Shown: positions 635-55,381, numbered from the stretch's first letter. The stretch: DNA of 64,000 bases from Prevotella sp. (GCA_031285625.1 JAITVV010000053.1:35180-99179), one strand, 5' to 3'. The notes: generated from the sequence alone by a model not told the origin. Translations and numbers: made by a program.

Positions 635-791
635 AAAGAGGCTGTCCCAAAAGTAATTTTCGCTGTCTCTTTGTCATGTTGAACGGAGTGAAACATCTCG
701 TGACTGGAGGGTCGGGATTCTTCATTACATTCAGAATGACAAAGAGGGTAATACTTTGATAGTGCAGTTTTACTTTTGGGACAGCCTCTTT
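635..791. mobile_element. MITE-like element bounded by a perfect 22-bp inverted repeat and enclosing REP doublet 1
   Basis: AAAGAGGCTGTCCCAAAAGTAA at 635-656 and its exact reverse complement at 770-791, between convergent genes. Confidence 0.55.
667..746. repeat. TGTC-tagged REP-like doublet 1
   Basis: ctctttgtcATGTTgaacggagtgaAACATctc ... gggATTCTtcattacattcAGAATgacaaagag. Confidence 0.9.
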
Positions 792-829
792 ATGTTCTTC
801 AAGGTATTATTTGAGAAATTAATCTATTT

Positions 830-1765
830 TTACTTCCAACCTTCTTTTGTTGGCTTTACTTTCTTAATTGTTCCATCAGCGTTATAATATAGCTTATCTA
901 CACATATAGAGCGCAAGTTTCCTTTTCCCGACAAGTCGCTGTTGTGATAGAAACCGTACCACTGACCTTTATATTCTACTATCGAGCCATGATTGGTGTC
1001 GCAGTTGGTAGGATCCATATAGATACCCTGATATTTCCAAGGGCCTAACGGGCTTTTGCTCGTTGCATATTTTTTTCTGTTGGCTCCCGGATTATTATCA
1101 GAATAAGAAAGATAATAAGTATCCTTGTATTTGTGTACCCATGTGGCTTCATGAAAATCATCAAGGCCTGCCATCTCTTGTAGTTCACCGTCCAGTTCTA
1201 CCATATTTTCTTTCATTTTGGCACCTTTGCAACGGCCACCGCCACCATAGTAGAAATATGCCTGACCGTCATCATCTACAAAGACACAAGGGTCTATCAT
1301 TGCAAAGTTGTCACTACCGAGATCAAGATAACCCTGAACCTGAAAATCGCTGGCTGGCTTGTTACTTGTAGCTATTCCAACTTTCCATGTCTTATTCCAC
1401 TCTGTTCCGCTGGGGTGAGGGAAGTAGAAATAATAGGTTCCGTTCCTGTAAGCACAGTCAGGCGCCCACATGAAACCGCCTTCGGGTCTTCCCCACGACA
1501 CCTGGCTCGAACGCAGTATTTCTCCGTGGTCTACCCAGTTCACCATATCGTCTGTAGAGAATACATGGTACTGGTCCATCAGGTCGCAACCTTTTGGTGG
1601 AGCAATATCATGAGATGCATATACATACAATCGTCCATCGTCCCACACATGTGCCGAAGGGTCGGCCGTGAACATATGGCGAATAAAAGGGTTTTTCTGG
1701 CTGTAGCTATTGATAGCCATTAGGGAAAATACTAAAAAGCTTAAAGTTAATAACGTCTTTCTCAT
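830..1765 (-). CDS. GH43 glycoside hydrolase (xylosidase/arabinofuranosidase-like), secreted
   Basis: TADP, WAPD, MIDP and FHEA catalytic motifs; N-terminal signal peptide. Confidence 0.9.
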   Translation of the reverse strand: MRKTLLTLSFLVFSLMAINSYSQKNPFIRHMFTADPSAHVWDDGRLYVYASHDIAPPKGCDLMDQYHVFSTDDMVNWVDHGEILRSSQVSWGRPEGGFMWAPDCAYRNGTYYFYFPHPSGTEWNKTWKVGIATSNKPASDFQVQGYLDLGSDNFAMIDPCVFVDDDGQAYFYYGGGGRCKGAKMKENMVELDGELQEMAGLDDFHEATWVHKYKDTYYLSYSDNNPGANRKKYATSKSPLGPWKYQGIYMDPTNCDTNHGSIVEYKGQWYGFYHNSDLSGKGNLRSICVDKLYYNADGTIKKVKPTKEGWK

Positions 1766-1817
1766 CGTTTTTTATTAATTATTTGTTTTGTGTTATATTT
1801 ATTAATTTACACATTGA

Positions 1818-3128
1818 TTACTTTCTCACAGGCATCTTTTCACTGTAGCCATTATCTCCGTTAAACCATTTGGCGGCTTCGCCTGATAGCCACAAGTAAT
1901 GGTCGCTTGGCAGGTTATCTTCTATTCCCACGAATTTAAAGCCCGAAGCGTTTTTAGGTACTTCATTCTGTCTTAGGCATTTGAATAATGCCGTGCCCTC
2001 ATCTATCTCGTCAAACATAGCCAAATATAAAGATTCAGCACCTGCTTTGCGGGCTCCCGCTATCTGCCGCCACAGGAATTCACCACCATGGCGGGGTATT
2101 TCATCATACAGTGAAGCATTTTTTCTCATATTGCCCCAACTGAATCCGGGAAATGCCAGCGGTACATAATCCACATTATTGTTTTTGCACCACTCTATGT
2201 CTTGCTGCACGGTATTGGTATTATAGTTTTTCAGGCTATAACGTCCTACAGCCCATGGCATAATAATGTCTACTGATTTTATTAATTCATGCAGTTGCGT
2301 GTCTTTTTCAGTATCGTTGCCCAGTGTCCTCCAGTAATATGGAACGCCCAGCATAATGGATACTTTGTTATTATCACCTCTCAGTTTCTTTACCAGATCG
2401 GCTATATCCTGGGTTGTATATTTTCTCCCGTCATTGAATCCTACACCCCAGATAACGACTAATGGTTTGCCATTATGCCGCAGGTAATTCGGATTCGTTT
2501 TATTGTTAAACAAGTCATAATCTTTTACCAGTTTTTCAAAGTCGTTGACAATGATATCCAATTCCGAACCTTTACTTCCCGATAGGTCATACATCACACA
2601 GATTGCCCTGTTGTACTTATTCGCTGCTTTCAGGGCGTTTTCAAAGACCTTGGTTATCTGTGCGCGTTTGTCTTTTACAGTAACGAGGAAGCGCTGCATA
2701 AAGACACCGTTCAAACCATATTCCTTCATCCATTTGAAATGCAGGTCGACAGTAGATTCATCCTGCGGACTGAATACATGTGCTTTATTCCCGTTAGGAA
2801 AAGAAAAGGGTGTTTCATATGTTTTTTCATATTCGGATACATCGGGCCAGAAATCGACAGTAGCAAAGCCCGGTTCGAATTTTCCGTTCTGATTGTAGTG
2901 CGTCCAGCCGCTATTGGCTCCGTCTCCCTGAGCAGTGAACCAACCCTGATAGCCTGCCATCGCCAATCCTTTGTAGCTTGTATAATTACAACCCGTTTCG
3001 TCATATTTTGCTTCCTCTATAGGCTGCTGAGGTTTCTCTTCCTCTGGTTTATTGTTGCCTCTGTTTGCACAAGACATTAGGGCGAAAGAAATCAGAAGTG
3101 CTGATATAAATAACTCGTATTTCTTCAT
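1818..3128 (-). CDS. GH71/GH99-like glycoside hydrolase lipoprotein
   Basis: MAGYQGWF, HFKWMKEYG and AMFDEIDEGT (ExxE) motifs; lipobox LMSC. Confidence 0.75.
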   Translation of the reverse strand: MKKYELFISALLISFALMSCANRGNNKPEEEKPQQPIEEAKYDETGCNYTSYKGLAMAGYQGWFTAQGDGANSGWTHYNQNGKFEPGFATVDFWPDVSEYEKTYETPFSFPNGNKAHVFSPQDESTVDLHFKWMKEYGLNGVFMQRFLVTVKDKRAQITKVFENALKAANKYNRAICVMYDLSGSKGSELDIIVNDFEKLVKDYDLFNNKTNPNYLRHNGKPLVVIWGVGFNDGRKYTTQDIADLVKKLRGDNNKVSIMLGVPYYWRTLGNDTEKDTQLHELIKSVDIIMPWAVGRYSLKNYNTNTVQQDIEWCKNNNVDYVPLAFPGFSWGNMRKNASLYDEIPRHGGEFLWRQIAGARKAGAESLYLAMFDEIDEGTALFKCLRQNEVPKNASGFKFVGIEDNLPSDHYLWLSGEAAKWFNGDNGYSEKMPVRK

Positions 3129-3179
3129 TATTATATTGATGTTTATTTCAAGATTAACACGTTTTTTGGTAACCTGTAA

Positions 3180-4133
3180 CTATTTTGTTTGTTTTACCAT
3201 TTGTATTGTCCCATCTTCATTGTAGTAGAGCTTATCTACACAAGCAGAACGTAGCCAGTCATTAAACTCCCCGTTCTTTTCAGATAATGAACTGTCATGG
3301 TAAAAAGAATACCATTGACCTTTATATTCGACAATAGAGCCATGATTGGTATAACTGTTTGTCGGCTCCATATAAATGCCCTGATGTTTCCATGGGCCTA
3401 ACGGACTGCTACTGGTTGCATAACGCATACGGTTATCGCCTTTTACACCATCATTCCAGTTCTCATCATGGTTATCCGAATAAGAAAGGTAATAGATCCC
3501 ATTGCGTTTATGTACCCATGCCGCTTCGTGGAAATCTTCGAGGCCTTCCATCTTTTGCAGCTCGCCATCTACTTCCATCATATTGTCTTTCAGTTTACCG
3601 CCGAGGCAAGTTCCTCCGCCACCCTGATAGATATAAGCCTGACCATCATCGTCTATAAATACATTCGGATCGATATGAGATTGCATGCCCTTTACATAGC
3701 CCTGTACTACAAAGTCTTTTGCCGGATATTTGCTTGTAGCAACCCCTATTTTCCAACTTTTTCCAGTATTTGTTTCACTGGGATGAGGAAAGAAGAAATA
3801 ATATGTTCCATCTTTATACGCACAGTCCGGTGCCCACATAAAACCACCTTCGGGACGACCCCAGGGTACCTGGCTCGAACGGAGTATTTCGCCGTGGTCT
3901 ACCCAGTTGACCATATCATCCGTAGAGAATACATGATACTGATCCATCAGGTCGCAGCCGCGCGGCGGGGCTATATCATGCGAAGCGTATACATACAGGC
4001 GTCCGTCTGCCCATACACGCGCCGAAGGGTCGGCAGTGTACATATGTTGTATAAATGGATTCTTTTGGCTGTAGCTGTTACAGGATAAGAGGGTAAATAC
4101 AGCAAAACATGCTGCGAAGAGTGCTTTTTTCAT
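3180..4133 (-). CDS. GH43 glycoside hydrolase, close paralog of 830-1765, possible lipoprotein
   Basis: TADP, WAPD, HIDP and FHEA motifs; LLSC lipobox-like signal. Confidence 0.9.
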   Translation of the reverse strand: MKKALFAACFAVFTLLSCNSYSQKNPFIQHMYTADPSARVWADGRLYVYASHDIAPPRGCDLMDQYHVFSTDDMVNWVDHGEILRSSQVPWGRPEGGFMWAPDCAYKDGTYYFFFPHPSETNTGKSWKIGVATSKYPAKDFVVQGYVKGMQSHIDPNVFIDDDGQAYIYQGGGGTCLGGKLKDNMMEVDGELQKMEGLEDFHEAAWVHKRNGIYYLSYSDNHDENWNDGVKGDNRMRYATSSSPLGPWKHQGIYMEPTNSYTNHGSIVEYKGQWYSFYHDSSLSEKNGEFNDWLRSACVDKLYYNEDGTIQMVKQTK

Positions 4134-4152: not shown

Positions 4153-5826
4153 TTAATCAAATATATTTTTGTTGTTATATGTTGCGCTTTCCACAGGGAT
4201 AACTTTAATTCTTATGATAGTGACCAGATTCTGATTAGCATCTTCGCTCAGGTAAACAGGAGGTATCTTTACGCCGCCTACACCCTGCATAGCCTCATCG
4301 CCTCCCAGGTATTTTGTGGTTTTCCATTCACCGTCTTTATAGTAGCCCTCCCGGATAGTACCATAACTGATGCCCGGAAGGTTTTTATCTTTAGACTGGA
4401 AAGATACATCGGCACCATTACCCGCAATCAGAAACTCGTCTGCGGAAAGCCGTATCGCCAGTCCGTAGCCCTGGTAAGGATAATTGTAATGTATATTTAT
4501 ATCGTAATCTCCAAAATCTATTTTGTCGGACTTGTTGTCTCCCTGCTGCATAAAGCCTTTCATATTGCCGGAGCCGTGTTCTTTTGCCATTAGCGGCATC
4601 AGGTTGTCCAGCACACGGTATGCGTCTTTCAGCGGATGCTTTTCGTCATATACATCATTATCGATAGCAAAGGGAGAAAATCCAAGCGCATTGAACTCGC
4701 TCAGTGTATAGAATGCCTTTGCAGGGCCGCTCCATTTCTCGCCACGCCAGAGGGCAACAGCTTCGGGTACGAAAACCGGATTACCGTTCCTGTTGTATTG
4801 GCGTAACTGCGATACATAATCATCATTGTAGTTGTCGATAGCTAGGAAATCCACGGATGGAGCAGCCAACTGATAAATGTCGAGCATCCGGTGGTTAGGC
4901 CCTCCGCTGGGGTAATTGCCGGGATTTGGGTCTTCCGGGTAAATCGTCCATGCGTTTACGAACAGCGGTATGGGGTAATCTCGTTTTCCTTCGGCTGCCA
5001 ACTGTTCTACAAAGCGGGCATAGTACCAGCCCATAAACAGCTCATCGGCAAGCCTGTTGCTATCATTACCGAACAGTTCGAGCCAGTTACCTTTTGCCTT
5101 TTTTCCGTGAGCCTTCCACTGGTTTATTATTTCAGGTAATATCTGTTTTTCGTTCTTTTGTAGGTATTGTATCAGTTTGCCTGGAACTTCTTTCCTGAAT
5201 AGTTCTTCCGCAGTAGCAGAACGGTCGCGGCTGTCTCCCAACAACCCTATTTCGTTTTCTATCTGTACCATAAGCACGGTGTGTTCTTTGCTGTCAATCT
5301 GTTTGATGAAATTCATCAGGGCGCCGAATGCTTTGGTGTCGGCTTTTGCCAGATTTTCGCTGTAGTTAGCCAGGAACGGACGATTTTCTCCCTTATCCGT
5401 TTTCATCCGCGGGAATCTTTTGGTGTCCCTCATAATCCAGTGCGGAGCATATCCCGACGAACCGTTTTTCCAACTGCCAAACCACAGGAAGACAAGCTTC
5501 AGGTCGTGTTTACGCGCTTCTTTAATCAGCCCTTCCACAATGGAAAAGTCATACTGCCCTTCCTCCGGTTCTATTTGTTCCCAGGCAACAGTCGCCAATA
5601 CCGTATTCAGATTGAGTGTTTTGAGGCGTTCCCATTTTGGCGCCATGCTTTCCAGTGTAGAGGCACTCGAATTCATCAGTTCGCCGGCAAGCATGATATA
5701 CGGCTTATCATTTACAATAAGCTGGACTATGTTGTTTTTATTCCTTTTCAGGTGCGGAATCTGCTGACCGTATACAAATCCGGCCGAGAAAAGGAACAGA
5801 AGGATAGAAGTTATGGCTTTTTGCAT
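4153..5826 (-). CDS. GH35-like beta-galactosidase with DUF5597 C-terminus
   Basis: LAGELMNSS, WEQIEPEEG, WFGSWKNG, VQIENE (acid/base) and FVPE (nucleophile). Confidence 0.8.
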   Translation of the reverse strand: MQKAITSILLFLFSAGFVYGQQIPHLKRNKNNIVQLIVNDKPYIMLAGELMNSSASTLESMAPKWERLKTLNLNTVLATVAWEQIEPEEGQYDFSIVEGLIKEARKHDLKLVFLWFGSWKNGSSGYAPHWIMRDTKRFPRMKTDKGENRPFLANYSENLAKADTKAFGALMNFIKQIDSKEHTVLMVQIENEIGLLGDSRDRSATAEELFRKEVPGKLIQYLQKNEKQILPEIINQWKAHGKKAKGNWLELFGNDSNRLADELFMGWYYARFVEQLAAEGKRDYPIPLFVNAWTIYPEDPNPGNYPSGGPNHRMLDIYQLAAPSVDFLAIDNYNDDYVSQLRQYNRNGNPVFVPEAVALWRGEKWSGPAKAFYTLSEFNALGFSPFAIDNDVYDEKHPLKDAYRVLDNLMPLMAKEHGSGNMKGFMQQGDNKSDKIDFGDYDINIHYNYPYQGYGLAIRLSADEFLIAGNGADVSFQSKDKNLPGISYGTIREGYYKDGEWKTTKYLGGDEAMQGVGGVKIPPVYLSEDANQNLVTIIRIKVIPVESATYNNKNIFD

Positions 5827-5882
5827 TTTATTATTTGGTTTCTTGTTATGGGAGATTTGTCATTTCTCCCTTTTTATTCCTA

Positions 5883-5957
5883 TTTGTCATTTTGAACGAA
5901 GTGAAAAATCCCGTGGCTCATGAGAAACGAGATTCTTCGTTTCACTCAGAATGACAA
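5883..5957. repeat. REP-like doublet 2, overlapping the stop codon of the esterase gene
   Basis: tttgtcATTTTgaacgaagtgaAAAATccc ... gagATTCTtcgtttcactcAGAATgacaa. Confidence 0.9.
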
Positions 5958-7348
5958 TTCGCTTTCAAAATAAAATCCACTATAGGCGCCGGATTCGGAA
6001 AACTATGCGGGTGATGTTTAAACCCGTGCTTCATCATCACCGTAATATTTCCGCCTGCCTCTTTTATTTTTCGTTCAAACTCTAAAGTCTGGGTAGGCGA
6101 TACGGCTTCGTCCTGGTCGGCACAAAGGATAAGTATCGGGTACTTTCCTTTCACTATTTCCTGTATCTTATCCATCGGGCTTCCTTTGAAGTTGCGGATA
6201 TCGTCCCGTGTTTTCAGTCCATACGCCGCCATAAAGTTCCTTGTCATCTCTCCCAGGTCTTCACCTTCCTTGTCAGCCAGATAGCGGCAGTCGAGCAGGG
6301 GATTGTCCACATATATACAACTCACCTTATCCGGATTGGCCGCTGCCCAGCAGAACGAATACATCGCACCGCGGCTCATGCCTTCCATTGTGCTTTTCTT
6401 TGATAAACCCGCCTTTGTCAATAGTTTATGAAAATCTGACCAGATAGACAGGGCTTCGGCGTTTCCCATCAGTTCGGCTACATCGCAGTAAACCAGATGG
6501 TATCCTCTTTCGAGTAAGGCAATATCGGTCTGTGGCTCGTGTGCCCAGAAGCGTGTACGCCATATCCACGGTTTGCCTTTAGCGGCAACTTTAGGTTTAA
6601 CTACCTTGCACTCTCTGCCTCTTAGTTTGAAGTCGGCACATGAATATCCTTTAAAATTACTGATAGTGTATGCCGTTTTTAGCTTGCTTAGTATATCGAA
6701 TCCTTTATCTGTTTTCAGTGTAACCTGGTCATATAACCTTTTGGCGATAATGCCCGAACCCTCATCATTGGGGTGTATCTTGTCCGGAAATAAATCAGGT
6801 CTGTTAATCAGTAATGAGTGCATATCCAGCACTTCCACGTTTTCATTATATGCGACTTGCTGGATTGCCGGGATAATATCGTTCACTATCACCGGATCCC
6901 ATATCTGGTTGTTATCCGTTTCGAAAGAGACAAACGGCAGCATCAGGATAATACGCGGTTTTGAAGGCAGGTCTCTGAAAGCATTTACCATATCGCTGCA
7001 ATCTTTTGCAAACTCGCTCATATGCACCCTGTTGACGGCTTTGGCATCGTTTCCGCCCAAATCGATAAAGACAATGTCGGGACTGCTGTTCAATGCTTTC
7101 TGGTAAGCTTCTGTATTCCGATACGGATGGTCACCCTTGCGCAGCATCGTGCAACTGCTTACCCCGCAATTGATTATCTGATACTTGTCTCCCAATAGGC
7201 TGCCCAGTTGCGCAGGGTAGGAATCTTTCTTCGGGTCGGTGGTCAATGCCCCTTCGGTGATACTGGCTCCTACACAGACTATTTTGGTCTGTGCGTGGGT
7301 AATTATTACCAGAAGAAAGCAGGATAAGAGAGTCAATATATATTTCAT
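5942..7348 (-). CDS. Two-domain esterase: SGNH/GDSL domain plus alpha/beta hydrolase domain (putative carbohydrate esterase)
   Basis: GASIT, GGND and DKIH motifs, then GMSRG, D and HHPH. Start moved to ATG 7348 (MKYILTLL signal) because the listed TTG start lies in a REP. Confidence 0.8.
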   Translation of the reverse strand: MKYILTLLSCFLLVIITHAQTKIVCVGASITEGALTTDPKKDSYPAQLGSLLGDKYQIINCGVSSCTMLRKGDHPYRNTEAYQKALNSSPDIVFIDLGGNDAKAVNRVHMSEFAKDCSDMVNAFRDLPSKPRIILMLPFVSFETDNNQIWDPVIVNDIIPAIQQVAYNENVEVLDMHSLLINRPDLFPDKIHPNDEGSGIIAKRLYDQVTLKTDKGFDILSKLKTAYTISNFKGYSCADFKLRGRECKVVKPKVAAKGKPWIWRTRFWAHEPQTDIALLERGYHLVYCDVAELMGNAEALSIWSDFHKLLTKAGLSKKSTMEGMSRGAMYSFCWAAANPDKVSCIYVDNPLLDCRYLADKEGEDLGEMTRNFMAAYGLKTRDDIRNFKGSPMDKIQEIVKGKYPILILCADQDEAVSPTQTLEFERKIKEAGGNITVMMKHGFKHHPHSFPNPAPIVDFILKANCHSE

Positions 7349-7364: not shown

Positions 7365-7458
7365 TCTTTGTCATTCTGAGTGTAACGAAGAATCTCGACT
7401 CTCAAAAGATAGAGTCAAACAGGAAAGAGATTCTTCACTCCGTTCAGAATGACAAAGA
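7365..7458. repeat. REP-like doublet 3
   Basis: tctttgtcATTCTgagtgtaacgaAGAATctc-spacer-gagATTCTtcactccgttcAGAATgacaaaga. Confidence 0.92.
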
Positions 7459-10171: not shown

Positions 10172-10262
10172 TCTTTGTCATTTTGAACGGAGTGAAAAAT
10201 CTCTTTCCTCTTTGAATATAACTGTTGAGGGTCGAGATGCTTCGTTGCCTCAGCATGACAAA
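10172..10262. repeat. REP-like doublet 4, inside the predicted 5'UTR of the GH3 gene
   Basis: tctttgtcATTTTgaacggagtgaAAAATctc ... gagATGCTtcgttgcctcAGCATgacaaa. Confidence 0.9.
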
Positions 10263-10293
10263 AAAGTATGATACAATTAGTAATTTTTTAATT

Positions 10294-12751: not shown

Positions 12752-12864
12752 CTCTTTGTCATTGACTACACTTTGTTTCGTCGAACATTGTTTCTGAACG
12801 AAGTGAAAAATCTCGTATCTCTTTGAGGGTCGAGATTCTTCGTTACACTCAGAATGACAAAGAG
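12752..12864. repeat. REP-like doublet 5, carrying a 28-bp insert in one arm
   Basis: tgtcatt[gactacactttgtttcgtcgaacattgt]ttctgaacgaagtgaaaaatctc ... gagattcttcgttacactcagaatgacaaagag. Confidence 0.88.
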
Positions 12865-15464: not shown

Positions 15465-15479
15465 TGTTATTGTATTATT

Positions 15480-15562
15480 CTCTTTGTCATTCTGAGTGCA
15501 ACGAAGAATCTCGACCCTCAAAGAGATAAGAGATTCTTCACTTCGTTCAGAATGACAAAGAG
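15480..15562. repeat. REP-like doublet 6
   Basis: ctctttgtcATTCTgagtgcaacgaAGAATctc ... gagATTCTtcacttcgttcAGAATgacaaagag. Confidence 0.92.
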
Positions 15563-16901: not shown

Positions 16902-16912
16902 GATAATATATA

Positions 16913-16990
16913 TTAGCGAATTAGCGAATTAGCAGATTAGCAGATTCATTCTTACATTTCCGAATCTGCTAATTTTCGAATTTGCTAATT
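16913..16990. repeat. 8-mer tandem repeats in inverted arrangement (attagcga/attagcag)
   Basis: attagcga x2 and attagcag x2, followed by aatctgctaatt...atttgctaatt. The GH43 stop codon lies inside it. Confidence 0.65.
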
Positions 16991-27604: not shown

Positions 27605-27699
27605 CTCTTTGTCATGCTGAGGAACGAAGGATCTTTCTTCATTATTCCATGAATAAGTGGAAGTGGGTCGGGATGCTTCCTTCGTCAGCATGACAAAGA
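27605..27699. repeat. REP-like doublet 7 (spacer type shared with doublet 15)
   Basis: ctctttgtcATGCTgaggaacgaAGGATct ... gggATGCTtccttcgtcAGCATgacaaaga. Confidence 0.88.
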
Positions 27700-36111: not shown

Positions 36112-36206
36112 CTCTTTGTCATGCTGAGGTACGAAGCATCTCGACTCTCAAAAGTTGGATACAAAGAGGAATGAGATTCTTCACTATCGTTCAGAATGAC
36201 AAAGAG
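36112..36206. repeat. REP-like doublet 8 (tandem with doublet 9)
   Basis: ctctttgtcATGCTgaggtacgaAGCATctc ... gagATTCTtcactatcgttcAGAATgacaaagag. Confidence 0.92.
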
Positions 36207-36228
36207 GAAAAAATAACGAGGTATTACT

Positions 36229-36350
36229 CTCTTTGTCATACTGAGTGCAACGAAGTATCTTGACTCTCAAAAGATAGATACAAAGAGAAAAGAGATTCTT
36301 CACTCCGTTCAGAAACAACGTCCGACGGAACGAAGTGTAGTCAATGACAA
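36229..36350. repeat. REP-like doublet 9, carrying the 28-bp insert
   Basis: tgtcATACTgagtgcaacgaAGTATct ... gttcagaa[acaacgtccgacggaacgaagtgtagtc]aatgacaa. Confidence 0.88.
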
Positions 36351-36389
36351 TACTAGACTTTAAATACAGAATTTTAAATAATATATAAT

Positions 36390-37652: not shown

Positions 37653-37675
37653 GCAAATATAAAGAAGGATAAAAA

Positions 37676-39928: not shown

Positions 39929-39934
39929 CAGATT

Positions 39935-41209: not shown

Positions 41210-41216
41210 CAAATAA

Positions 41217-41266
41217 TTAGCCTATAGCCATTAGCAAGATTTATCTTGCTAATGGCTATAGGCTAA
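41217..41266. repeat. Perfect 24-bp-arm palindrome built from short repeats
   Basis: ttagcctatagccattagcaagat-tt-atcttgctaatggctataggctaa. Confidence 0.85.
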
Positions 41267-41284
41267 AAGCTTAGAAAAATAATT

Positions 41285-44611: not shown

Positions 44612-44635
44612 TTTAGGTAGACTTTAGTGATTGTG

Positions 44636-44668
44636 AAACGGCTGATTCCTAAAAATCAGCCGTTTTTG
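44636..44668. terminator. Terminator between convergent GH2 and NTF2 genes
   Basis: aaacggctgatt-cctaaa-aatcagccgttt followed by a T tract. Confidence 0.75.
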
Positions 44669-44681
44669 TTTGTACTGATTT

Positions 44682-45155
44682 TCATTCATAAAATGAATAA
44701 TGCTGCGCTACAGCGTACCATCTGCCATTTTCGTAAATCAATGTGTACATATCTTTACAACGAAAACTCTGAATATCTCCATCCTGTGTTTTTATCTTTA
44801 AGTCATTGTAATAAGTCACAATCGCTGTTTTATTATCATTGTATAACTGTACCAGAGGTTCGGTTTCTTCCATACTGATGGTCTCCGCATATTGGGTATA
44901 TTTCCTGTACGATTGCAGAATAGAATCTTTGCCTACCAGCCGTTCTTTTCTATCCGGATAAAATATAACCATTTCATTATGAAGGCACAAAGCCAGGCTG
45001 TCCATATTTTCTGTAATAGCCCAATGCCGGTTAATCTCTTTTACTGTATTCCATACTTCCAGATTTGTTCTATCAATAAAGTTTACCTCCTTGTAATCAT
45101 TGTATTGGGTAAAGCCGGAAAATATGGAAAGAGTAAAAATAAAAATAACTTTCAT
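44682..45155 (-). CDS. NTF2-like (SnoaL/DUF4440) protein
   Basis: Helix then TAIVTY...GRWYAVAQHYS pattern; start abuts the upstream gene's stop. Confidence 0.7.
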   Translation of the reverse strand: MKVIFIFTLSIFSGFTQYNDYKEVNFIDRTNLEVWNTVKEINRHWAITENMDSLALCLHNEMVIFYPDRKERLVGKDSILQSYRKYTQYAETISMEETEPLVQLYNDNKTAIVTYYNDLKIKTQDGDIQSFRCKDMYTLIYENGRWYAVAQHYSFYE

Positions 45156-45545
45156 TTATCCCAGAGGCTTGATTAACGACCAATGATTATGCACTATTTT
45201 CCATTGATTATCACTTATTAACTGGTATACTTCCGTACAATTCCATTTATAAACATCATCACCTGAATAAGATATCAGGTTATAAGTCAGTACAGCCGTA
45301 CTTTGAGATAATTGTACAACCGGATTTATCATTTCGTATCGTTCTACAGAGCCTTTACCTCTCAGGCTTTCATACAATTCTTTTATCTTTTCAAAACCGT
45401 CGAGCCTTCTTTCCTGAAACGGATCAAAGTATGTAAAGTCAGGAGAATAAATGTCAAGGTAACCGTCCGGATTCCCTTTGTTCCACTTCTCTAATGCAGC
45501 TATCTCCATTTCAATAATTTGCTTTTTGATACTTTCTTTGTCCAT
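45156..45545 (-). CDS. NTF2-like (SnoaL/DUF4440) protein
   Basis: DFTYFDP, TAVLTY, WNCTEVY and WKIVHNHWS. Confidence 0.8.
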   Translation of the reverse strand: MDKESIKKQIIEMEIAALEKWNKGNPDGYLDIYSPDFTYFDPFQERRLDGFEKIKELYESLRGKGSVERYEMINPVVQLSQSTAVLTYNLISYSGDDVYKWNCTEVYQLISDNQWKIVHNHWSLIKPLG

Positions 45546-45580
45546 ATTTTTAATTATAAATTGTAATTTACACTACTCTC

Positions 45581-45652
45581 TTGTCATTCTGAGTGTAACG
45601 AAGAATCCCGACCTTTAAGAAATGAGATTCTTCGCTACACTCAGAATGACAA
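45581..45652. repeat. REP-like doublet 10
   Basis: ttgtcATTCTgagtgtaacgaAGAATccc ... gagATTCTtcgctacactcAGAATgacaa. Confidence 0.9.
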
Positions 45653-45724
45653 ATATTCCATAAGCAAAAATAGGATGAATCAGATATTCATACAGAATAC
45701 AAACTATGGAGAAAATAGCACTTT

Positions 45725-46594
45725 TCAACGTTTTGTGCTATTTCTGTATTGCAGGGGAGTATAACCTGTGTGTCTTCGGAAGGAACGGATAAAGTAAGAT
45801 GAGGAATCGAAGTTGAGATTTTCGGCAATTTCAGATATGGAGAGGCTGGTATAAGCCAGCAACCTTTTTGCTTCCGAAAGTATCTTATTCTGTATATATA
45901 GTTTTGCATTTACACTTGTTGCTTTTTTAACTATCTCATTCAGGTAATTAGGTGTAATGCATAACTTATCAGCATAATACCCCGTATCGTGATGCTGCTT
46001 AAAGTCTTTGTTCACTAACTCTATAAATGAATTTACGTGCCTGTTTGTTATTTTTTCTGTCCCTTTTCTATTCGTGTTTTGTTTCCTGTATTCACGGTCG
46101 AGCAGCATTAGTATTTCGTATAGCAAGGCTCTGAGTATATGCTTGTCTTTAGATTCATAGTTGTTTATCTCTGCAGTGATATTCTGAAGAAGGTAATCGG
46201 TACGCTGTTTTATTTCAGAAATATTTATTACTGGTGTTTCCCGTTCGGCACTGAAATAAGATAAGTTCTGAATAAACCGGGAATCATTGAAAAAGGAGAG
46301 CAGGAATTCTTCTTCGAAAATGAGAGCAAGTCCATCGAGATTACTGCTTTCTGTTTCCCATGCCCGCACTTGTCCGGGTTTTGAGAAGATTACATCGTTT
46401 GTCTGTAATTCATAACATTTGTTGTCTATACTAAATGTTGCAGTGCTTTTTATAAATGTAATATCGAAATAAGACAATGTATGTACAGGATCTTTGTGTA
46501 TATACTTTTGTATATCTTTTAATTTGACGATATCGATAAGAAGTTCTTCACCGTATTTCGTCTTATGAAAGTAATATTGTGGTATAGATTTCAT
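45725..46594 (-). CDS. AraC-family transcriptional regulator
   Basis: YADKLCITPNYLN...EIAENLNF.SSSYFIRSFRRHTGYTPLQYR. Confidence 0.93.
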   Translation of the reverse strand: MKSIPQYYFHKTKYGEELLIDIVKLKDIQKYIHKDPVHTLSYFDITFIKSTATFSIDNKCYELQTNDVIFSKPGQVRAWETESSNLDGLALIFEEEFLLSFFNDSRFIQNLSYFSAERETPVINISEIKQRTDYLLQNITAEINNYESKDKHILRALLYEILMLLDREYRKQNTNRKGTEKITNRHVNSFIELVNKDFKQHHDTGYYADKLCITPNYLNEIVKKATSVNAKLYIQNKILSEAKRLLAYTSLSISEIAENLNFDSSSYFIRSFRRHTGYTPLQYRNSTKR

Positions 46595-46742
46595 CTAAAT
46601 AATATGATGTACAAATCTAATAAAAAACACACTAAAAGATTCGTTTATAAAATTAATGATACTTTTACAAATTGTCATTTTTTTCTTTTCAAGAAAATCT
46701 TTATCTTCGAAGCTTATACTATCTAGCGAATATCTGATACAC

Positions 46743-47504
46743 ATGAATATTATCTTACTACAAACTGATATAGCATGGCAGGAACCTGAAAAGAACAGGC
46801 TTCATGTGGAAGATCTTATAGATCCTTTGCCGGATAATACCGATCTTATCGTCCTTCCGGAGATGTTTACTACCGGATTTTGTACCTCTCCAAAAGGTGT
46901 AGCTGAAAAAGCAGATACCGACACGCTTATATGGATGCAATCCGTAGCCTTGAGGCGAAATATGGCTCTGGCCGGAAGTGTGGCTACCGAAGAAGATGGA
47001 AAGTATTATAATCGCTTTTATTTTGTAAAGCCGGATGGAAGCTATGTTACTTATAATAAAAGGCATCTGTTTACCTATGCCGGAGAAGATAAGGAATATG
47101 CTGCCGGAGGGGATAGGGTGATTGTGGAATACAACGGATTCAGAATCCTTTTACAGATTTGTTACGACCTGCGTTTCCCGGTTTATTCACGCAACCGTGG
47201 TGATTATGATATGATATTGTACATTGCCAGTTGGCCTACAGTACGCCTTTATGCATGGAATACACTGGTACGCGCACGCGCCATAGAAAACGTATGCTAT
47301 GTAGCAGCAGTAAACCGTACAGGTAACGACCCGGGTAATGAATATAGCGGAGGTACAGCATTATACGACTTTATGGGAAAACCGATTGCCGAAGTAGGCA
47401 CCGGAGAAGAAGCCGTAAGCGGCATTATCAGTATGCAGGAGCTAACCGATTTCAGAAAGAAATTCCCTGCATTGCAGGACGCAGATAAATTTGAACTAAT
47501 ATAA
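46743..47504 (+). CDS. Nitrilase-family amidohydrolase (omega-amidase, YafV-like)
   Basis: E-K-C triad in LPEMF, YNKRHLF and ICYDLRFP. Start moved to ATG 46743. Confidence 0.88.
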   Translation: MNIILLQTDIAWQEPEKNRLHVEDLIDPLPDNTDLIVLPEMFTTGFCTSPKGVAEKADTDTLIWMQSVALRRNMALAGSVATEEDGKYYNRFYFVKPDGSYVTYNKRHLFTYAGEDKEYAAGGDRVIVEYNGFRILLQICYDLRFPVYSRNRGDYDMILYIASWPTVRLYAWNTLVRARAIENVCYVAAVNRTGNDPGNEYSGGTALYDFMGKPIAEVGTGEEAVSGIISMQELTDFRKKFPALQDADKFELI

Positions 47505-47513
47505 TGATATATT

Positions 47514-47592
47514 CTCTTTGTCATGTTGAACGAAGTGAAACATCTCGACTCTCAAGAGACACGAGATCCTTCATTCCATTCAGGATGACAAA
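47514..47592. repeat. REP-like doublet 11
   Basis: ctctttgtcATGTTgaacgaagtgaAACATctc ... gagATCCTtcattccattcAGGATgacaaa. Confidence 0.9.
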
Positions 47593-47614
47593 TGTATCCA
47601 AACTAATATAATTA

Positions 47615-49192
47615 ATGAGAGATAAACTACTGATGTTAGGCGATCAGGCCATTGCACTTGGTGCTATACATGCAGGGATAACCGGAGTTTACGCCTATCC
47701 CGGCACTCCCTCTACCGAAATAACAGAATATATACAAGAGTCTCCTCTTGCTAAGGAGAGGAACGTACACAGCCAATGGTGTACCAACGAGAAAACAGCG
47801 ATGGAAGCCGCTCTTGGTGTTTCCTATATAGGGAAAAGGGCTTTGGTATGTATGAAACATGTAGGGCTGAATGTGGCTGCTGATGCTTTTGTCAACTCGT
47901 CTATGACTGGGACTAACGGAGGTTTGGTAGTGCTTGTTGCGGACGATCCTTCGATGCACTCTTCCCAGAATGAGCAGGACTCCCGCTATTATGGTAAGTT
48001 TGCTTTTATGCCGATATTCGAGCCTTCCTCTCAGCAGGAAGCTTACGATATGATCAGATATGCTTTCGATGTTTCCGAACAATTCGAATTGCCTGTCCTG
48101 ATGCGCCTGACTACGCGCATGGCACACTCACGCGCCGAAGTGCGGATTTCTGAAATAAGGGAACAGAACAAAATAAGATTCCCCGAAGACAAATCACGCT
48201 GGGTATTACTACCTGTAAATGCACGGAGACGTTACAATGAGTTGCTTGCAGCTCAGCCTGCACTTGAAAAATTAGCCACAGAATCAATTTATAATAAATA
48301 CACTTCAGGAAACAAAAAAGGGGTTATAGCCTGCGGATTAGGTTATAATTACCTGATGGAAAACTTTCCCGATGGTTGCGACCGTACGGTATTAAAGATA
48401 TCACAATACCCATTGCCTAAAGAGCTAATCCGTAAGGTAATGAATGAATGTGACGAAGTACTGGTACTCGAAGACGGACAACCATTTGTGGAAGAACAAC
48501 TACGCGGACTACTCGACGAAAGCGGTAAGGTAAAAGGGCGTCTGACCGGGGAACTTCCCCGCGTTGGAGAACTCACGCCCGATAATGTACGTAATGCCCT
48601 TGGTTTTGCAGAGCAGCCGAAATTCAATCCAAGTACCAATGTGGTTCCACGTCCACCGGCTTTATGCACAGGATGCGGACACATAGATGTGTACAAGGCA
48701 TTGAACGAAGTAGTTGCAGAATATAAAGATGCAAAAGTATTCAGTGATATAGGATGCTATACACTAGGGGCATTACCTCCATTCCGTGCCATAGATACAT
48801 GTGTAGATATGGGTGCTTCTATAACAATGGCAAAAGGTGCGGCAGATGGAGGTTTATTCCCCTCTATAGCGGTGATTGGGGATTCTACATTCACTCATTC
48901 GGGTATTACAGGCCTGTTGGATGCTGTAAACTCAGGGGTGAATATTACTGTGGTTATTTCGGATAACCTGACTACGGCAATGACCGGAGGGCAGGATTCC
49001 GCAGGAACAGAACGCCTCGAAGATATATGCTCGGGCGTGGGCGTAGAAAAGGAACATATACGTGTCATTATCCCGCTGCCTAAAAATATGGAAGAGGCTA
49101 AGAATGTAATCAGAGAGGAAATAGAATACAACGGTGTTTCAGTTATCATCCCGCGCAGGGAATGTATTCAGACATTGAAAAGGAAAAAATAA
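47615..49192 (+). CDS. iorA: Indolepyruvate:ferredoxin oxidoreductase subunit alpha (no C-terminal ferredoxin domain)
   Basis: YPGTPSTEI, NEKTA.E, MKHVGLNVAAD, RPPALC.GC.H, DIGCY and TPP motif GDSTF.HSG. Confidence 0.92.
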   Translation: MRDKLLMLGDQAIALGAIHAGITGVYAYPGTPSTEITEYIQESPLAKERNVHSQWCTNEKTAMEAALGVSYIGKRALVCMKHVGLNVAADAFVNSSMTGTNGGLVVLVADDPSMHSSQNEQDSRYYGKFAFMPIFEPSSQQEAYDMIRYAFDVSEQFELPVLMRLTTRMAHSRAEVRISEIREQNKIRFPEDKSRWVLLPVNARRRYNELLAAQPALEKLATESIYNKYTSGNKKGVIACGLGYNYLMENFPDGCDRTVLKISQYPLPKELIRKVMNECDEVLVLEDGQPFVEEQLRGLLDESGKVKGRLTGELPRVGELTPDNVRNALGFAEQPKFNPSTNVVPRPPALCTGCGHIDVYKALNEVVAEYKDAKVFSDIGCYTLGALPPFRAIDTCVDMGASITMAKGAADGGLFPSIAVIGDSTFTHSGITGLLDAVNSGVNITVVISDNLTTAMTGGQDSAGTERLEDICSGVGVEKEHIRVIIPLPKNMEEAKNVIREEIEYNGVSVIIPRRECIQTLKRKK

Positions 49193-49195
49193 CAG

Positions 49196-49292
49196 TTTGT
49201 CATTCTGAACGGAGTGAAGAATCTCGCGTATCCAAAGTAAATCTCTGATTCAAGAGGGTTGGGATGCTTCGTTACCTCAGCATGACAAAGAG
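49196..49292. repeat. REP-like doublet 12, between iorA and iorB
   Basis: tttgtcATTCTgaacggagtgaAGAATctc ... gggATGCTtcgttacctcAGCATgacaaagag. Confidence 0.9.
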
Positions 49293-49304
49293 AGAATAAA
49301 AAAT

Positions 49305-49892
49305 ATGAAACTAGATATAATACTATCAGGTGTAGGCGGGCAGGGAATCCTTTCCATAGCTGCCATCATAGGTGAGGCAGCCTTAGAAGAAGGCCTGCAT
49401 ATCAAACAGGCCGAAGTGCATGGAATGAGTCAGCGGGGCGGTGACGTACAGTCCAACCTGCGCATCTCATCCACAGAGATATATTCCGACCTTATAGCCA
49501 AAGGCACTGCCGACGCCATCATATCATTAGAGCCAATGGAGGCATTGCGCTATCTGCCTTACCTTTCGCAACAGGGATGGATTGTAGCTAATTCGGCACC
49601 ATATGTAAATATAGGTAACTATCCCGAGTTGGATACAGTATTAAAAGAATTGTCGTCACTGCCAAACGTGATCTTGCTTGATGTAGATGCATTGGCAAAA
49701 GAAGGTGGGGTAGGGCGTTCTACTAATATGGTACTGCTGGGTGCCGCCTCGGTTATACTGGGTATAGATTATGATAAGCTCGAAGATGCTATTGCCCGTG
49801 TATTTATGCGTAAAGGCGAGAATGTAGTAGAGATGAATAAGAAAGCATTAAGTATAGGGCGAGAAGCAGGAAAAGAACAGTTGAAGAAATAA
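49305..49892 (+). CDS. iorB: Indolepyruvate oxidoreductase subunit beta
   Basis: GVGGQG, EVHGMSQRGG, LEPMEALR and NMVLLGA. Confidence 0.92.
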   Translation: MKLDIILSGVGGQGILSIAAIIGEAALEEGLHIKQAEVHGMSQRGGDVQSNLRISSTEIYSDLIAKGTADAIISLEPMEALRYLPYLSQQGWIVANSAPYVNIGNYPELDTVLKELSSLPNVILLDVDALAKEGGVGRSTNMVLLGAASVILGIDYDKLEDAIARVFMRKGENVVEMNKKALSIGREAGKEQLKK

Positions 49893-49903
49893 AAGGCTGT
49901 ACT

Positions 49904-49997
49904 CTCTTTGTCATACTGAGTGCAACGAAGCATCTCGACCCTGAAAAGATAGAGACAAAGAGGAAAGAGATTCTTCACTATCGTTCAGAATGACAAA
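49904..49997. repeat. REP-like doublet 13
   Basis: ctctttgtcATACTgagtgcaacgaAGCATctc ... gagATTCTtcactatcgttcAGAATgacaaa. Confidence 0.9.
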
Positions 49998-50008
49998 AAT
50001 GTTTAAAA

Positions 50009-50052
50009 ACTTGTAACTCGTAACAGCCCACAGGGCAAAGTAACTTGTAACT
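50009..50052. repeat. Heptamer-repeat element with GCCCACAGGGC hairpin, copy B
   Basis: acttgta actcgta aca gcccacagggc aaagta acttgta act. Confidence 0.8.
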
Positions 50053-50060
50053 AAAAATAT

Positions 50061-51371
50061 ATGCAACACCAAGTATTCACACAACAGCTCGTAAATCAGG
50101 TAGTGGACGAACTAAAGATCACCAATCTTGAGAAAGCGACCATTGGAGAGGTCTTATTGCTAGCTTCACGTCTCGAGCAGATCACAGGTATTCCTTTCAT
50201 CCGTATGGATCAGGGTGTGCCGGGACTTAAACCATGTCAAATTGGTATAGATGCGGAGAAAAAAGCGCTCGATAGTGGTATCGCATCCATGTATCCGGCA
50301 GCAGAAGGTATCCCTGTGTTGAAGAGTGAAGCATCCCGCTTTGTGAAAGCTTTTCTCGATGTGGATATCTTACCTGCATCCTGTATCCCTGTTACCGGAT
50401 CTGTAGCGGGTTCGTTCGGCTCATTCATAGCATGTAATCAACGCGATTTGCAAAAGGATACTGTTCTGTTTATCGACCCCGGATTTCCTATTCAGAAATC
50501 GCAACTGAAAATACTGGGTGTGAAATACGAAGAATTTGATGTGTACAAATACAGAGGCGCTCCCCTGAAAGATAAACTCGAAAGCTTCCTTTCTAAAGGC
50601 AATATATCCACCATCGTTTATTCCAATCCGAATAATCCGGCGTGGATCAGTTTCACCGAAGAGGAGTTGAAGGTTATTGGCGGGTTGGCTACCAAATATG
50701 ATGTTATTGTGATGGAAGATCTAGCGTATTTTGGCATGGATTTCCGTACCGATTTTGGTAAGCCGTTTCAGCCGCCTTATGTTCCGACTGTGGCACGTTA
50801 TACAGACAACTATATACTGATGCTTTCCTCATCCAAGATATTTAGCTATGCCGGACAACGTGCGGCTGTGCTTTGTGTTTCGGACAAACTGTTTTCGCGG
50901 AAGTTTGATGCTTTTGCTCAGCGCTATTCCGGAGCAGGTATTTTTGGGCCTACATTTATAGGTTCTATTTTATATATGATCACCTCAGGCATCACGCATT
51001 CCACGCAGTACGGATATGCTGCTATGCTGAAAGCAGCCTCAGACGGCGAGCTCGACTTTGTGAAAGAAACAAGCGAATATGCACGGCGTGCACACAGAAT
51101 GAAGGAGTCATTCGGAAAATATGGATTCAATGTGGTGTACGATAAGGATATAGACCGCGATATTTCGGACGGCTTTTTCTTCACCATCGGCTATAAAGAT
51201 ATGACCTGTGCCGAACTGATGCGCGAACTGCTTTATTATGGTATAAGCTCCATTGCCTTGTCCACCACAGGCAGCGACCAGCAAGGTGTCAGGGCGTGTT
51301 GCTCGCGTATGAGTGAAGACCTCTATGGTGTATTGGATGAGCGGTTGAAGGCGTTTAGCCTCGACCATTAA
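50061..51371 (+). CDS. PLP-dependent aminotransferase, class I/II
   Basis: SNPNNP, EDLAY and SSSKIFSYAGQR (PLP lysine). Confidence 0.88.
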   Translation: MQHQVFTQQLVNQVVDELKITNLEKATIGEVLLLASRLEQITGIPFIRMDQGVPGLKPCQIGIDAEKKALDSGIASMYPAAEGIPVLKSEASRFVKAFLDVDILPASCIPVTGSVAGSFGSFIACNQRDLQKDTVLFIDPGFPIQKSQLKILGVKYEEFDVYKYRGAPLKDKLESFLSKGNISTIVYSNPNNPAWISFTEEELKVIGGLATKYDVIVMEDLAYFGMDFRTDFGKPFQPPYVPTVARYTDNYILMLSSSKIFSYAGQRAAVLCVSDKLFSRKFDAFAQRYSGAGIFGPTFIGSILYMITSGITHSTQYGYAAMLKAASDGELDFVKETSEYARRAHRMKESFGKYGFNVVYDKDIDRDISDGFFFTIGYKDMTCAELMRELLYYGISSIALSTTGSDQQGVRACCSRMSEDLYGVLDERLKAFSLDH

Positions 51372-54492: not shown

Positions 54493-54517
54493 GAGTGGAG
54501 AATTATTTCAGACTTTA

Positions 54518-54602
54518 TTTGTCATGTTGAGTAACCGAATATCCCGACTCTAGGAACTAGAATTTAAGAGGCAAGAGATTCTTCACTATGTTCAGAATGA
54601 CA
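54518..54602. repeat. REP-like doublet 14 (left arm degenerate)
   Basis: tttgtcatgttgagtaaccgaatatcccgactc ... gagATTCTtcactatgttcAGAATgaca. Confidence 0.8.
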
Positions 54603-54663
54603 GGGAAAAGAGGAATTTAGCTTACCTATTTATTTTGATAAATTTATCTTATATTAGAACTAT

Positions 54664-54736
54664 AAGAATAAAACTAACAGCTAAAAAAAACATACAAATA
54701 ATTGTCACCTTTGTCACTTTTTTATAAAAAATAGAA
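54664..54736 (+). repeat. Duplicated leader, copy A (tgtcacNtttgtcac core)
   Basis: Aligns to 55392-55454. Confidence 0.75.
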
Positions 54737-55302
54737 TGAATTATTTTCTCAAAATAACAAGTAAACCCAACTATCCTTTAGTATATGATGCGCAGCATAA
54801 TAATACAAACGGAAGTTACTTTGCCGTGGGAAAATATATAAACGAAGAAATAAGCGATCCGTTGATCTACAACGATGCGCAGAATAGTGATATCGGATAT
54901 GAAAAACTGATAACATACAGCGCCTTGGAAACGGTAGGAGGTGGCGTATTATATTCCCGGCAGTTTGTAGACTTCCTTTATAAGAATGGCTTTGATAAAG
55001 ATGTACAGATCTTTGACGCACGGTTCAATTATAAAGGAAATTCCTGTGATAATTATTATGTAGTTAACATATACAATAAGGTAGAATGCTATGATATGGA
55101 TCAGTCTGTTTATCAGGTGCATCCTGTAGATAAATCGTATAAGTTCAGCAAAACGGTGTTGAAAGAAGAACCTCTGGAAGAATACGGATATATTTACAAT
55201 ATTGCACGAAGTGTGTACGATAATAAAATAATTGTTTCGGGAGAATTCAGGGAATTACTGAAAACAGAAAAGATGAATAGTATAAGTTTTTCAACGAAAT
55301 AA
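54736..55302 (+). CDS. Imm11/DUF1629-like orphan immunity protein
   Basis: Pattern LYSRQF...VQIF...YYVVNI.NKVECYD.DQS...IIVSGEFRELL...ISF, recognised by eye. Confidence 0.6.
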   Translation: MNYFLKITSKPNYPLVYDAQHNNTNGSYFAVGKYINEEISDPLIYNDAQNSDIGYEKLITYSALETVGGGVLYSRQFVDFLYKNGFDKDVQIFDARFNYKGNSCDNYYVVNIYNKVECYDMDQSVYQVHPVDKSYKFSKTVLKEEPLEEYGYIYNIARSVYDNKIIVSGEFRELLKTEKMNSISFSTK

Positions 55303-55309
55303 AAGTATT

Positions 55310-55381
55310 TTGTCATGCTGACGGAGGAAGCATCCCGATTCATTTATTCATGGAAAAAGGGAAGATTCTTCAGGATGACAA
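55310..55381. repeat. REP-like doublet 15 (right arm truncated)
   Basis: ttgtcATGCTgacggaggaAGCATccc ... gattcttcaggatgacaa. Confidence 0.8.

Follow-up and report, generated by a model that had tools for sequence, protein, structure and literature searches.

What are the short tagged palindromes that punctuate a polysaccharide-utilization locus of Prevotella sp., and to what kind of enzyme, if any, do they belong? The DNA in question (GCA_031285625.1 JAITVV010000053.1:35180-99179; 64,000 nucleotides, hereafter the window) carries SusC/SusD genes together with genes for glycoside hydrolases (GH) of families 2, 3, 31, 43, 92, and 95, and between its genes lie inverted doublets of a hairpin-forming arm, each arm with a TGTC tag pointing outward. 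We consider it quite likely that these doublets belong, as a variant found in Bacteroidota, to the CGTC/TGTC-tagged REPs (repetitive extragenic palindromes), being of the same kind as the NTS/SRM repeats, and that they represent a population orphaned of its cognate GIY-YIG nuclease. What is new is the arm itself, with a tandem G·A step and a GNA loop, which is found across many phyla and is unmatched by the published SRM motif.

Tagged hairpin arms in the window and in the genome

Arms were sought with the pattern TGTCATNNTGA, and the chance level was taken from 100 dinucleotide shuffles of the window. The window contains 28 matches, 14 per strand, whereas the shuffles average 0.73 and none has more than 3. 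When the arms were printed and aligned, they reproduced the anatomy proposed in a first-pass annotation of this DNA, TGTC-stem1-GA-stem2-loop-stem2'-GA-stem1'-C(T/C)(C/T): an unpaired TGTC, a stem 1 of 5 nucleotides (nt) starting with AT, a GA, a stem 2 of 1 to 2 nt, the loop, then stem 2', GA, stem 1', and a terminal C(T/C)C. The variants listed in that annotation were all recovered among the window arms, namely, six versions of stem 1 (ATTCT, ATGTT, ATTTT, ATGCT, ATACT, and ATCCT), five of stem 2, and loops comprising all four GNA (GAA, GGA, GTA, and GCA) as well as GATA, GCAA, and GTAA; the surroundings that it described were likewise seen, as a ..CTCTTT flank and a CTCGAC(C/T)CT tail. Its count of 15 tag-outward doublets, in turn, holds only when three doublets with one decayed arm (near 12788-12863, 36230-36320, and 55307-55384) are included. 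All 15 are intergenic and sit just past the 3' end of a gene, between same-direction or convergent genes, and no doublet was found in the divergent promoter region at 30563-30865.

In an alignment of 27 window arms, chosen by their 5' half only, G6, T7, C8, and the C that follows the stem are invariant, although unpaired. Across the genome (an assembly of 4.84 Mb in 96 contigs, 94.25% complete), T precedes GTC in 198 of 229 loosely found arms, and the tail reads CTC in 139 and CCC in 31 of these. The genome total amounts to 166 to 182 arms depending on the selection rule, and the window accounts for 26 of the 166 within 1.3% of the genome length.

Pairing is conserved within each arm

Within the alignment of 27 arms, 95.6% of cells are paired, compared with 78.8% in shuffles, and both-side changes occur in 38 cells, compared with 12.4; none of 500 shuffles reached either value. 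Four of the seven pairs covary, pairs 9-30 (AU) and 10-29 (UA) hold in 26/26 distinct alignment rows, and shifting the partner by 1 to 3 columns leaves at most 51.6% of cells paired. The same was found genome-wide in a set of 166 arms picked by their invariant parts, with the variable stem positions unconstrained: Watson-Crick pairs fill 317 of the 332 variable cells in stem 1, against a shuffle mean of 162.0 (standard deviation 7.2; 0/2000 shuffles reach the observed value), and the loop is a 3-nt GNA in 134 of the 166 arms.

Doublets were counted in a second selection, in which the output of a looser finder was filtered to 182 arms. These form 59 tag-outward doublets, as opposed to a single tag-to-tag pair, and 64 arms are singletons. 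Stem 1 differs between the two arms in 52/59 doublets and is the same in 7/59, so that complementarity between the arms is not the conserved feature, in line with the first-pass claim that compensation operates inside single arms only. On its own tagged strand, each arm of a doublet retains the G·A step and the GNA loop. These observations support the hairpin inside each arm, on its own TGTC strand, as the selected structure. For the further claim that this hairpin is recognized by a protein in single-stranded DNA (ssDNA), support comes from the ssDNA-binding protein reported for the family in the available text of Chenal et al. 2025 (PMC11893778).

Small GIY-YIG genes lie beside the arms in relatives

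Seven small GIY-YIG open frames, coding for 103 to 177 amino acid residues and scoring over the PF01541 cut-off, were found among 31 genomes of the genus. A small GIY-YIG gene flanked by arms was one of the candidates that the first-pass annotation had named, and 7/7 cases in these relatives agree with it: GA-type arms lie on one or both sides of five of the genes in a scripted search, and the remaining two genes, judged by eye, sit amid CGTCATTGCGA-type hairpins. All seven genomes carry arms (8 to 106 strict copies). Among the 23 genomes of the genus in which the gene was not found, 11 are without arms and 7 have at least 28 strict arms; within the genus, therefore, the gene was never seen without arms, and arms were often seen without the gene.

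The association extends beyond the genus. In five genomes from other phyla, chosen because they bear arms (5 to 687 each), GA arms are present at 6 of 8 small GIY-YIG loci, within 300 nt at 5 of the 8, compared with 1 of 7 loci of UvrC size, the latter as a neighbor of a small gene; one of these genomes has five pattern matches in all, at least two of which flank the gene. In a sample of Bacteroidota drawn regardless of arms, a homolog was detected in 135/301 genomes, and GA arms occur within ~500 nt at 20 of the 30 best-scoring loci. Across phyla, the arms thus accompany small GIY-YIG genes. Small GIY-YIG genes of a second type (..VYIMTNQRNGTLY.GVTSRL..) were found amid CGTCATTGCGAGGGTTTACCCGAAGCAATCC-type hairpins at loci L132 and L133 (genomes G045 and G001), which are syntenic with positions C29:35509-35898 of the genome studied here; the presence of this second gene type amid its own type of hairpin suggests two enzyme-repeat pairs within one genus.

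The protein of the relatives (G017, G043, G006, and others) is a single-domain GIY-YIG protein of about 100 residues, the size of the Ssn family. The G017 protein is identical to an NCBI protein from a Dysgonomonas species and matches a Neisseria gonorrhoeae locus with 38.6% identity over 85% of the length (E 3e-10); that 1455-nt locus contains 10 CGTCATTCCC hairpins, nine well-formed NTS and one degenerate. It also matches a gene of Azospirillum lipoferum 4B that is flanked by CGTCATCCCCGCGAAGGCGGGGATCCAG doublets, this strain being given as one of the 29 genomes behind the SRM motif (PMC11893778). Thirteen aligned proteins all share Y5, Y16, R26, H30, and E66, and homology to the NTS-flanked Neisseria gene is accompanied by conservation of the catalytic Tyr, Tyr, and Glu. 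Searches against NCBIfam returned only weak, sub-threshold matches to GIY-YIG-containing models, and a PDB sequence search yielded only weak matches to the UPF0213 proteins 1YWL and 1ZG2 and no solved Ssn structure.

The gene site of two relatives lies inside the window

A search of the present genome with PF01541 found UvrC only, and tblastn with the seven proteins of the genus gave a best E value of 0.19 and no small GIY-YIG protein. In G017 and G043, the small GIY-YIG gene lies between the iorB-like and aminotransferase orthologs, among several doublets; at the same site here (49893-50060), across which the assembly is continuous, there is only the doublet at 49905-49999. The closest genome, with about 88% identity at this locus, is G043, whose gene copy is at a contig end. 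In two runs, metagenome contigs of relatives carry 730 and 1294 other letters at this site. It is most parsimonious to assume that the nuclease gene was lost in this lineage from 49893-50060, and the 166 to 182 arms would be an orphaned population because of that loss. The first-pass suggestion that the mobilizer was merely outside the window is not supported, as the nuclease was found nowhere in the assembly and the gene site of the relatives lies inside the window. Of two further gene sites used by other relatives, C29:34464-34541 is empty here and C29:35509-35898 is a 389-nt spacer.

The doublet sites are polymorphic between relatives, as the first-pass annotation had anticipated, being empty or differently filled in G043 and, for one doublet, absent from another contig. 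The doublets at 10172 and 49905 are common to the window and G043. In place of 36045-36377, which includes doublets 8 and 9, G043 has ~30 nt without arms, the site being rearranged, and at the sites orthologous to 7365, 47515, and 49194 it has a different, GC-rich hairpin repeat. These GC-rich repeats (..CCCCCAAAGGGGG.., ..CCCCTCCAAAGGGAGGGG..) are located at L151:5760-6000, L152:10780-10930, and L152:12480-12730. In a low-depth metagenome contig of a relative, position 49181 is joined to 49293 with nine letters between them, so that this relative lacks doublet 12 and shows an empty site.

The gene content of this polysaccharide-utilization locus also changes rapidly. The segments 1776-3181, 4153-5957, 12874-15530, 37642-39995, and 41194-46660, each with at least one whole gene, are absent from the syntenic contig of G043. 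In particular, the GH3 gene at 12873-15521 is missing there, and one doublet remains. A doublet lies at the border of two of the five whole-gene differences between the window and G043, and since it is only these two, a role of the doublets in moving gene cassettes is at most a lead.

The distribution of the arms in the genus is patchy. The strict pattern was found in 13/24 congeners of a first draw and in 18/29 of all congeners assayed, with 0 to 106 arms per congener and 112 in G000, and a reversed-pattern control gave 0 everywhere. In public genomes, the pattern matches at least 125 stretches; the matches listed come from Chloroflexota, Acidobacteriota, Nitrospirales, Firmicutes, Cyanobacteria, Planctomycetes, Verrucomicrobiota, Gemmatimonadaceae, Saccharibacteria, and others, mostly have middles of 7 or 5 nt, such as GCGAAGC, and frequently form doublets, with the GCGAAGC center present in 28 of the 147 GA arms listed from other phyla. 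Separately, in four insect-associated metagenome or RNA libraries, held as contigs, the summed contig depth rises 3- to 80-fold across doublets (47405-47565, 49176-49336, and 49820-50141), which indicates that the arms are abundant repeats in those insect-associated communities.

Relationship to known repeat families

Two described systems come closest. In the available text of Chenal et al. 2025 (PMC11893778), NTS and the related SRM hairpins flank small single-domain GIY-YIG genes (Ssn, cd10448), the products of which bind the hairpin only as ssDNA and only on the tagged strand and cleave it a few bases before the tag. In Neisseria, Ssn lowers transformation by NTS-flanked DNA, and the role tested there is the cutting of incoming ssDNA; the three bases before the palindrome are the most critical for cutting, and the C after it is the most critical for binding (PMC11893778). 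The corresponding positions, GTC and the trailing C, are those that are invariant in the 27 window arms, and the C directly after the palindrome is so in arms that had been picked by their 5' half only. The repeats studied here further share with this system a hairpin starting with AT, tens to hundreds of oriented and mostly intergenic copies that cluster near certain genes, and a position flanking an ~100-residue single-domain GIY-YIG gene, in this case in relatives. The inverted repeat of 20 to 50 nt that characterizes the SRM is evident from the intra-arm covariation, and the unpaired 5' (H)GTC tag is present as well, whereas repeats flanking an ssn gene in the same genome are found in the relatives and not here. 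The arms differ in their build: the NTS/SRM palindrome is a perfect GC-rich 8-bp stem with a 4-nt loop (PMC11893778), whereas the present arm comprises five AT-rich pairs, a tandem G·A step, a stem 2 of one or two pairs, and a GNA triloop; in addition, the repeats here are without the gene, and the published motif fails on them. Supplementary Data 4 of the same paper gives, for all seven of its Dysgonomonas genomes, SRM fold values of 0.18 to 1.39, that is, chance level, and no ssnA homolog (PMC11893778).

The second system is that of the CGTC-tagged REPs. As described in the available text of Di Nocera et al. 2013 (PMC3733652), TGTC is a frequent form of the tag, the first stem pairs are A-T and T-A, the tail is a short 3 nt, head-to-head dimers predominate and are often heterodimers, the repeats are present in Bacteroidetes, and no transposase gene was found flanked by them. 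The present arms agree with this description in the tag, the first two pairs, the 3-nt tail, the head-to-head heterodimers, the host group, and the lack of a flanked transposase gene. They depart from it in the stem, in that CGTC REPs have uninterrupted stems of 8 to 9 bp and loops of 4 to 5 nt (PMC3733652), whereas the arms here have two G·A mismatches and loops mostly of 3 nt.

The center of the arm has a likeness of its own. DNA mini-hairpins of the d(GCGAAGC) type, in which a sheared G·A pair is formed, are unusually stable, as known from the literature of the 1990s. The arm center is C-GNA-G or an equivalent, for instance, ACGAAGT or GTGTAAC, but in contrast to the mini-hairpins, it tops a stem of 5 bp, with a tandem G·A step in between, and is part of a tagged genomic repeat. 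A literature search returned no printed description of a G·A-type arm, with the limit that a de novo logo in Chenal et al. 2025 may show one; strings of the arm sequence matched only unrelated primers, no paper linking GIY-YIG proteins with REPIN/RAYT systems was found, and SsnA/SRM appeared only in Chenal et al. 2025. The first-pass annotation left it undecided whether the family had been catalogued. As far as these sources go, the kind is, as CGTC REPs and as NTS/SRM, and this variant is not, having been missed by the published motif. Resemblance of the CUGA...GAA arrangement to a hammerhead or a kink-turn was considered by eye and dropped, because the core motifs do not fit.

Weighing the explanations

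Under the reading that we prefer, each arm consists of a 5' GTC tag, a hairpin, and an invariant C and is read on the tag-bearing strand, so that a tag-outward doublet presents one site per DNA strand. The cognate enzyme would be the ~100-residue GIY-YIG protein encoded between such arms in relatives, and the arms would be substrates of this Dysgonomonas-type enzyme. The repeats would have spread while the enzyme was present, before its gene was lost from 49893-50060; hypothetically, their copying depended on the nuclease. The orphan arms, still well formed, would persist in 3'-end and intercistronic spacers as harmless or useful elements, where, being long palindromes, they probably affect transcripts as well and serve as points of recombination.

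Several findings weigh against this reading. The SRM search sequence, coded as HGTCWYN(0-2)YYVSBRHN(0-5)WNVSBRGN(0-2)RNCYNB and matching an NTS instance, hits 0 of the 182 arms of this genome (nine chance-level hits genome-wide) and 0 of the 147 GA arms from other phyla, so that membership rests on the architecture and the gene association. The protein of the relatives, in turn, appears Ssn-like by homology, and its membership in cd10448 is putative. The cognate nuclease gene was not found in the assembly, which is fragmented, so that repeat-embedded genes can fall into gaps, and at least 28 strict arms occur without a detectable small GIY-YIG gene in G000, G003, G007, G010, G016, G019, and G044, which implies that arms need no enzyme to persist. 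Genomes of kin are not independent samples, and the co-occurrence of gene and arms is hence a description rather than a test. Among the mismatches, 14 are G·T and 6 are A·C, too few to give a clear strand signal. Finally, in nearest-neighbor DNA folding, an arm on its own reaches just -1.1 kcal/mol (z +0.58), a stability not above that of shuffles, and whole doublets close into a single long hairpin between their arms (-24.5 and -23.7 kcal/mol; z -6.0 and -6.8). Such parameters probably give too little weight to sheared G·A pairs and GNA loops.

A serious secondary explanation is compatible with an orphaned nuclease-linked family: the doublets would be maintained chiefly for a function in RNA, folding in the transcript into a strong hairpin to terminate transcription or block 3' exonucleases, as classical REP/BIME elements do, and any nuclease link would be historical. 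As an account in its own right we regard this RNA role as possible but doubtful. The strong folds of whole doublets would suit it, yet pairing is conserved within the arms, and the differing stems in 52/59 doublets weaken the long inter-arm hairpin on which those folds depend. The location of all 15 doublets past gene 3' ends, with none in the divergent promoter, is what a transcript-borne structure would call for, as are the arms that persist in genomes of the genus lacking the nuclease gene; the GC-rich hairpins of G043 at three orthologous sites would likewise fit an interchangeable structural role. Against these stand the 64 singletons among the 182 arms, the invariance of a tag and a trailing C that are unpaired, and the composition of the doublets themselves: since the G·A step and GNA loop are kept by each arm on its own strand, any one transcript carries one purine-type and one pyrimidine-type arm.

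A less probable account holds that the doublets are landing or recombination points for mobile DNA or gene cassettes, like the dRS3 repeats in Neisseria, and were spread by recombination and gene conversion with no dedicated enzyme. The GH3 gene at 12873-15521, bounded by doublets here and replaced by a single doublet in G043, would illustrate such an exchange, but doublets border only two of the five whole-gene differences from G043. The concentration of arms in the polysaccharide-utilization-locus window and the breaking of G043 contigs at arms would also be expected of recombination points, whereas the covarying hairpin, the invariant tag, and the GIY-YIG association would be left unexplained. 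Classical REPINs, moved by a RAYT or another HUH/Y1 transposase that reads single-stranded hairpins, one of the candidate mobilizers named in the first-pass annotation, share with the present family the inverted hairpin doublets, the patchy distribution, a repeat-flanked single-copy nuclease gene, and populations able to outlive the gene, but this reading is largely refuted and highly improbable, given that PF01797 (Y1_Tnp) finds nothing in the 94.25%-complete genome, that the tag is TGTC and not GTAG, that the gene flanked by arms in relatives is GIY-YIG, and that the available text of Di Nocera et al. reports no transposase gene flanked by CGTC repeats (PMC3733652).

The fifteen doublets and neighboring repeats

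Doublet 1 (667..746) joins an ATGTT/ACGGAGT arm on the plus strand to an ATTCT/ATGTAAT arm on the minus strand, confirming the mixed composition noted for it in the first-pass annotation. It is nested within a longer outer palindrome at about 636-790 (GAGGCTGTCCCAAAAGTAA...). This outer palindrome (AGAGGCTGTCCCAAAAGTAA ... TTACTTTTGGGACAGCCTCT) carries the doublet in its loop and is terminator-like, and because similar outer arms recur around most doublets of 67- to 68-nt spacing listed elsewhere in the genome, a composite of about 150 nt may be the repeated unit. Doublet 2 (5881..5960; ATTTT arm on the plus strand, ATTCT arm on the minus strand) lies past the 3' end of a GDSL-lipase gene and, together with the neighboring gene at 4153-5826, is missing from G043. 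Doublet 3 (7365..7458) consists of two ATTCT arms with the middles GTGTAAC and ACGGAGT. Doublet 4 (10172..10264), with an ATTTT arm on the plus and an ATGCT arm on the minus strand, is kept at the orthologous site of G043, where one arm has a 1-nt insertion. Doublets 5 (12788..12863) and 6 (15481..15561) form the two borders of the GH3 gene at 12873-15521; the former has a degenerate left arm and an intact right one, ATTCT/GTGTAAC on the minus strand, and the latter has two ATTCT arms. Between a SusC-like gene and a GH3 gene lies doublet 7 (27606..27699), the ATGCT arms of which have the 5-nt middles GGAAC and CGAAG.

Doublet 8 (36113..36205) combines an ATGCT arm on the plus strand with an ATTCT/ACGATAGT arm on the minus strand and is followed by doublet 9 (36230..36320), with an ATACT arm on the plus strand and a degenerate right arm at ~36294-36319. 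The two ATTCT arms of doublet 10 (45578..45655) are 96% mutually complementary. Doublet 11 (47515..47594) pairs ATGTT on the plus with ATCCT on the minus strand, and doublet 12 (49194..49291), located between two indolepyruvate oxidoreductase genes, pairs ATTCT on the plus with ATGCT on the minus strand. Doublet 13 (49905..49999), which marks the site of the small GIY-YIG gene in G017 and G043, has an ATACT arm on the plus strand and an ATTCT/ACGATAGT arm on the minus strand. In doublet 14 (54516..54606), the plus-strand arm is ATGTT-like with an imperfect 3' half, and the minus-strand arm is ATTCT/ACATAGT; in doublet 15 (55307..55384), an ATGCT/CGGAG arm on the plus strand is accompanied by a truncated right arm without a hairpin.

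Other repeats were observed in the window. A second short repeat, TTTACATACGCTnnGCTCCTGTnACCnTTGGTTG, occurs at 36057-36095 and at five other places in the genome (contigs C28, C52, C80, C86, and C91); five of the six copies lie within doublet spacers, giving doublets of 106 to 109 nt, and the sixth is located just ahead of doublet 8. Between two glycoside-hydrolase genes, at 16912-16990, successive ATTAGCGA/ATTAGCAG units, which have no relation to the TGTC arms, face an inverted copy (arms of 34 nt, 79% complementary). At 41217-41266, between two genes, the arms of an inverted repeat match perfectly over 24 nt around a center of 2 nt (TTAGCCTATAGCCATTAGCAAGAT / ATCTTGCTAATGGCTATAGGCTAA). A search of the whole window against Rfam found no family at the gathering score, with only chance-level matches near 36050-36330.

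Significance

To our knowledge, no site-specific enzymes other than the Ssn nucleases have been described that cut ssDNA exclusively. Each pair of Ssn enzyme and hairpin is a potential tool, and a large class built on a mini-hairpin with G·A mismatches would, if real, widen the known specificities. Surveys that use the published SRM motif would undercount the system; in the available data of Chenal et al., several Bacteroidota genomes have a cd10448 homolog and SRM counts at chance (PMC11893778). For annotation, the arms account for many spurious short open reading frames and for assembly breaks.

Arm-bearing loci among the matches listed come from Bacteroidota, Acidobacteriota, Chloroflexota, Gemmatimonadota, Saccharibacteria, Firmicutes, Planctomycetota, Cyanobacteria, and others. 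We tentatively propose that the G·A/GNA arm defines a distinct Ssn specificity class across phyla, uncounted in present catalogs, with its own clade of ~100-residue GIY-YIG proteins that would read a mismatch mini-hairpin in place of a perfect palindrome, and that in Dysgonomonas the repeats outlive the enzyme, bracket glycoside-hydrolase genes of polysaccharide-utilization loci, and may shape the gain, loss, or protection of genes at the entry of ssDNA. With genomes that have both gene and repeats, repeats only, or neither, Dysgonomonas offers a natural series in which to ask whether the repeats owe their origin or their upkeep to the enzyme or are simply put to use by it.

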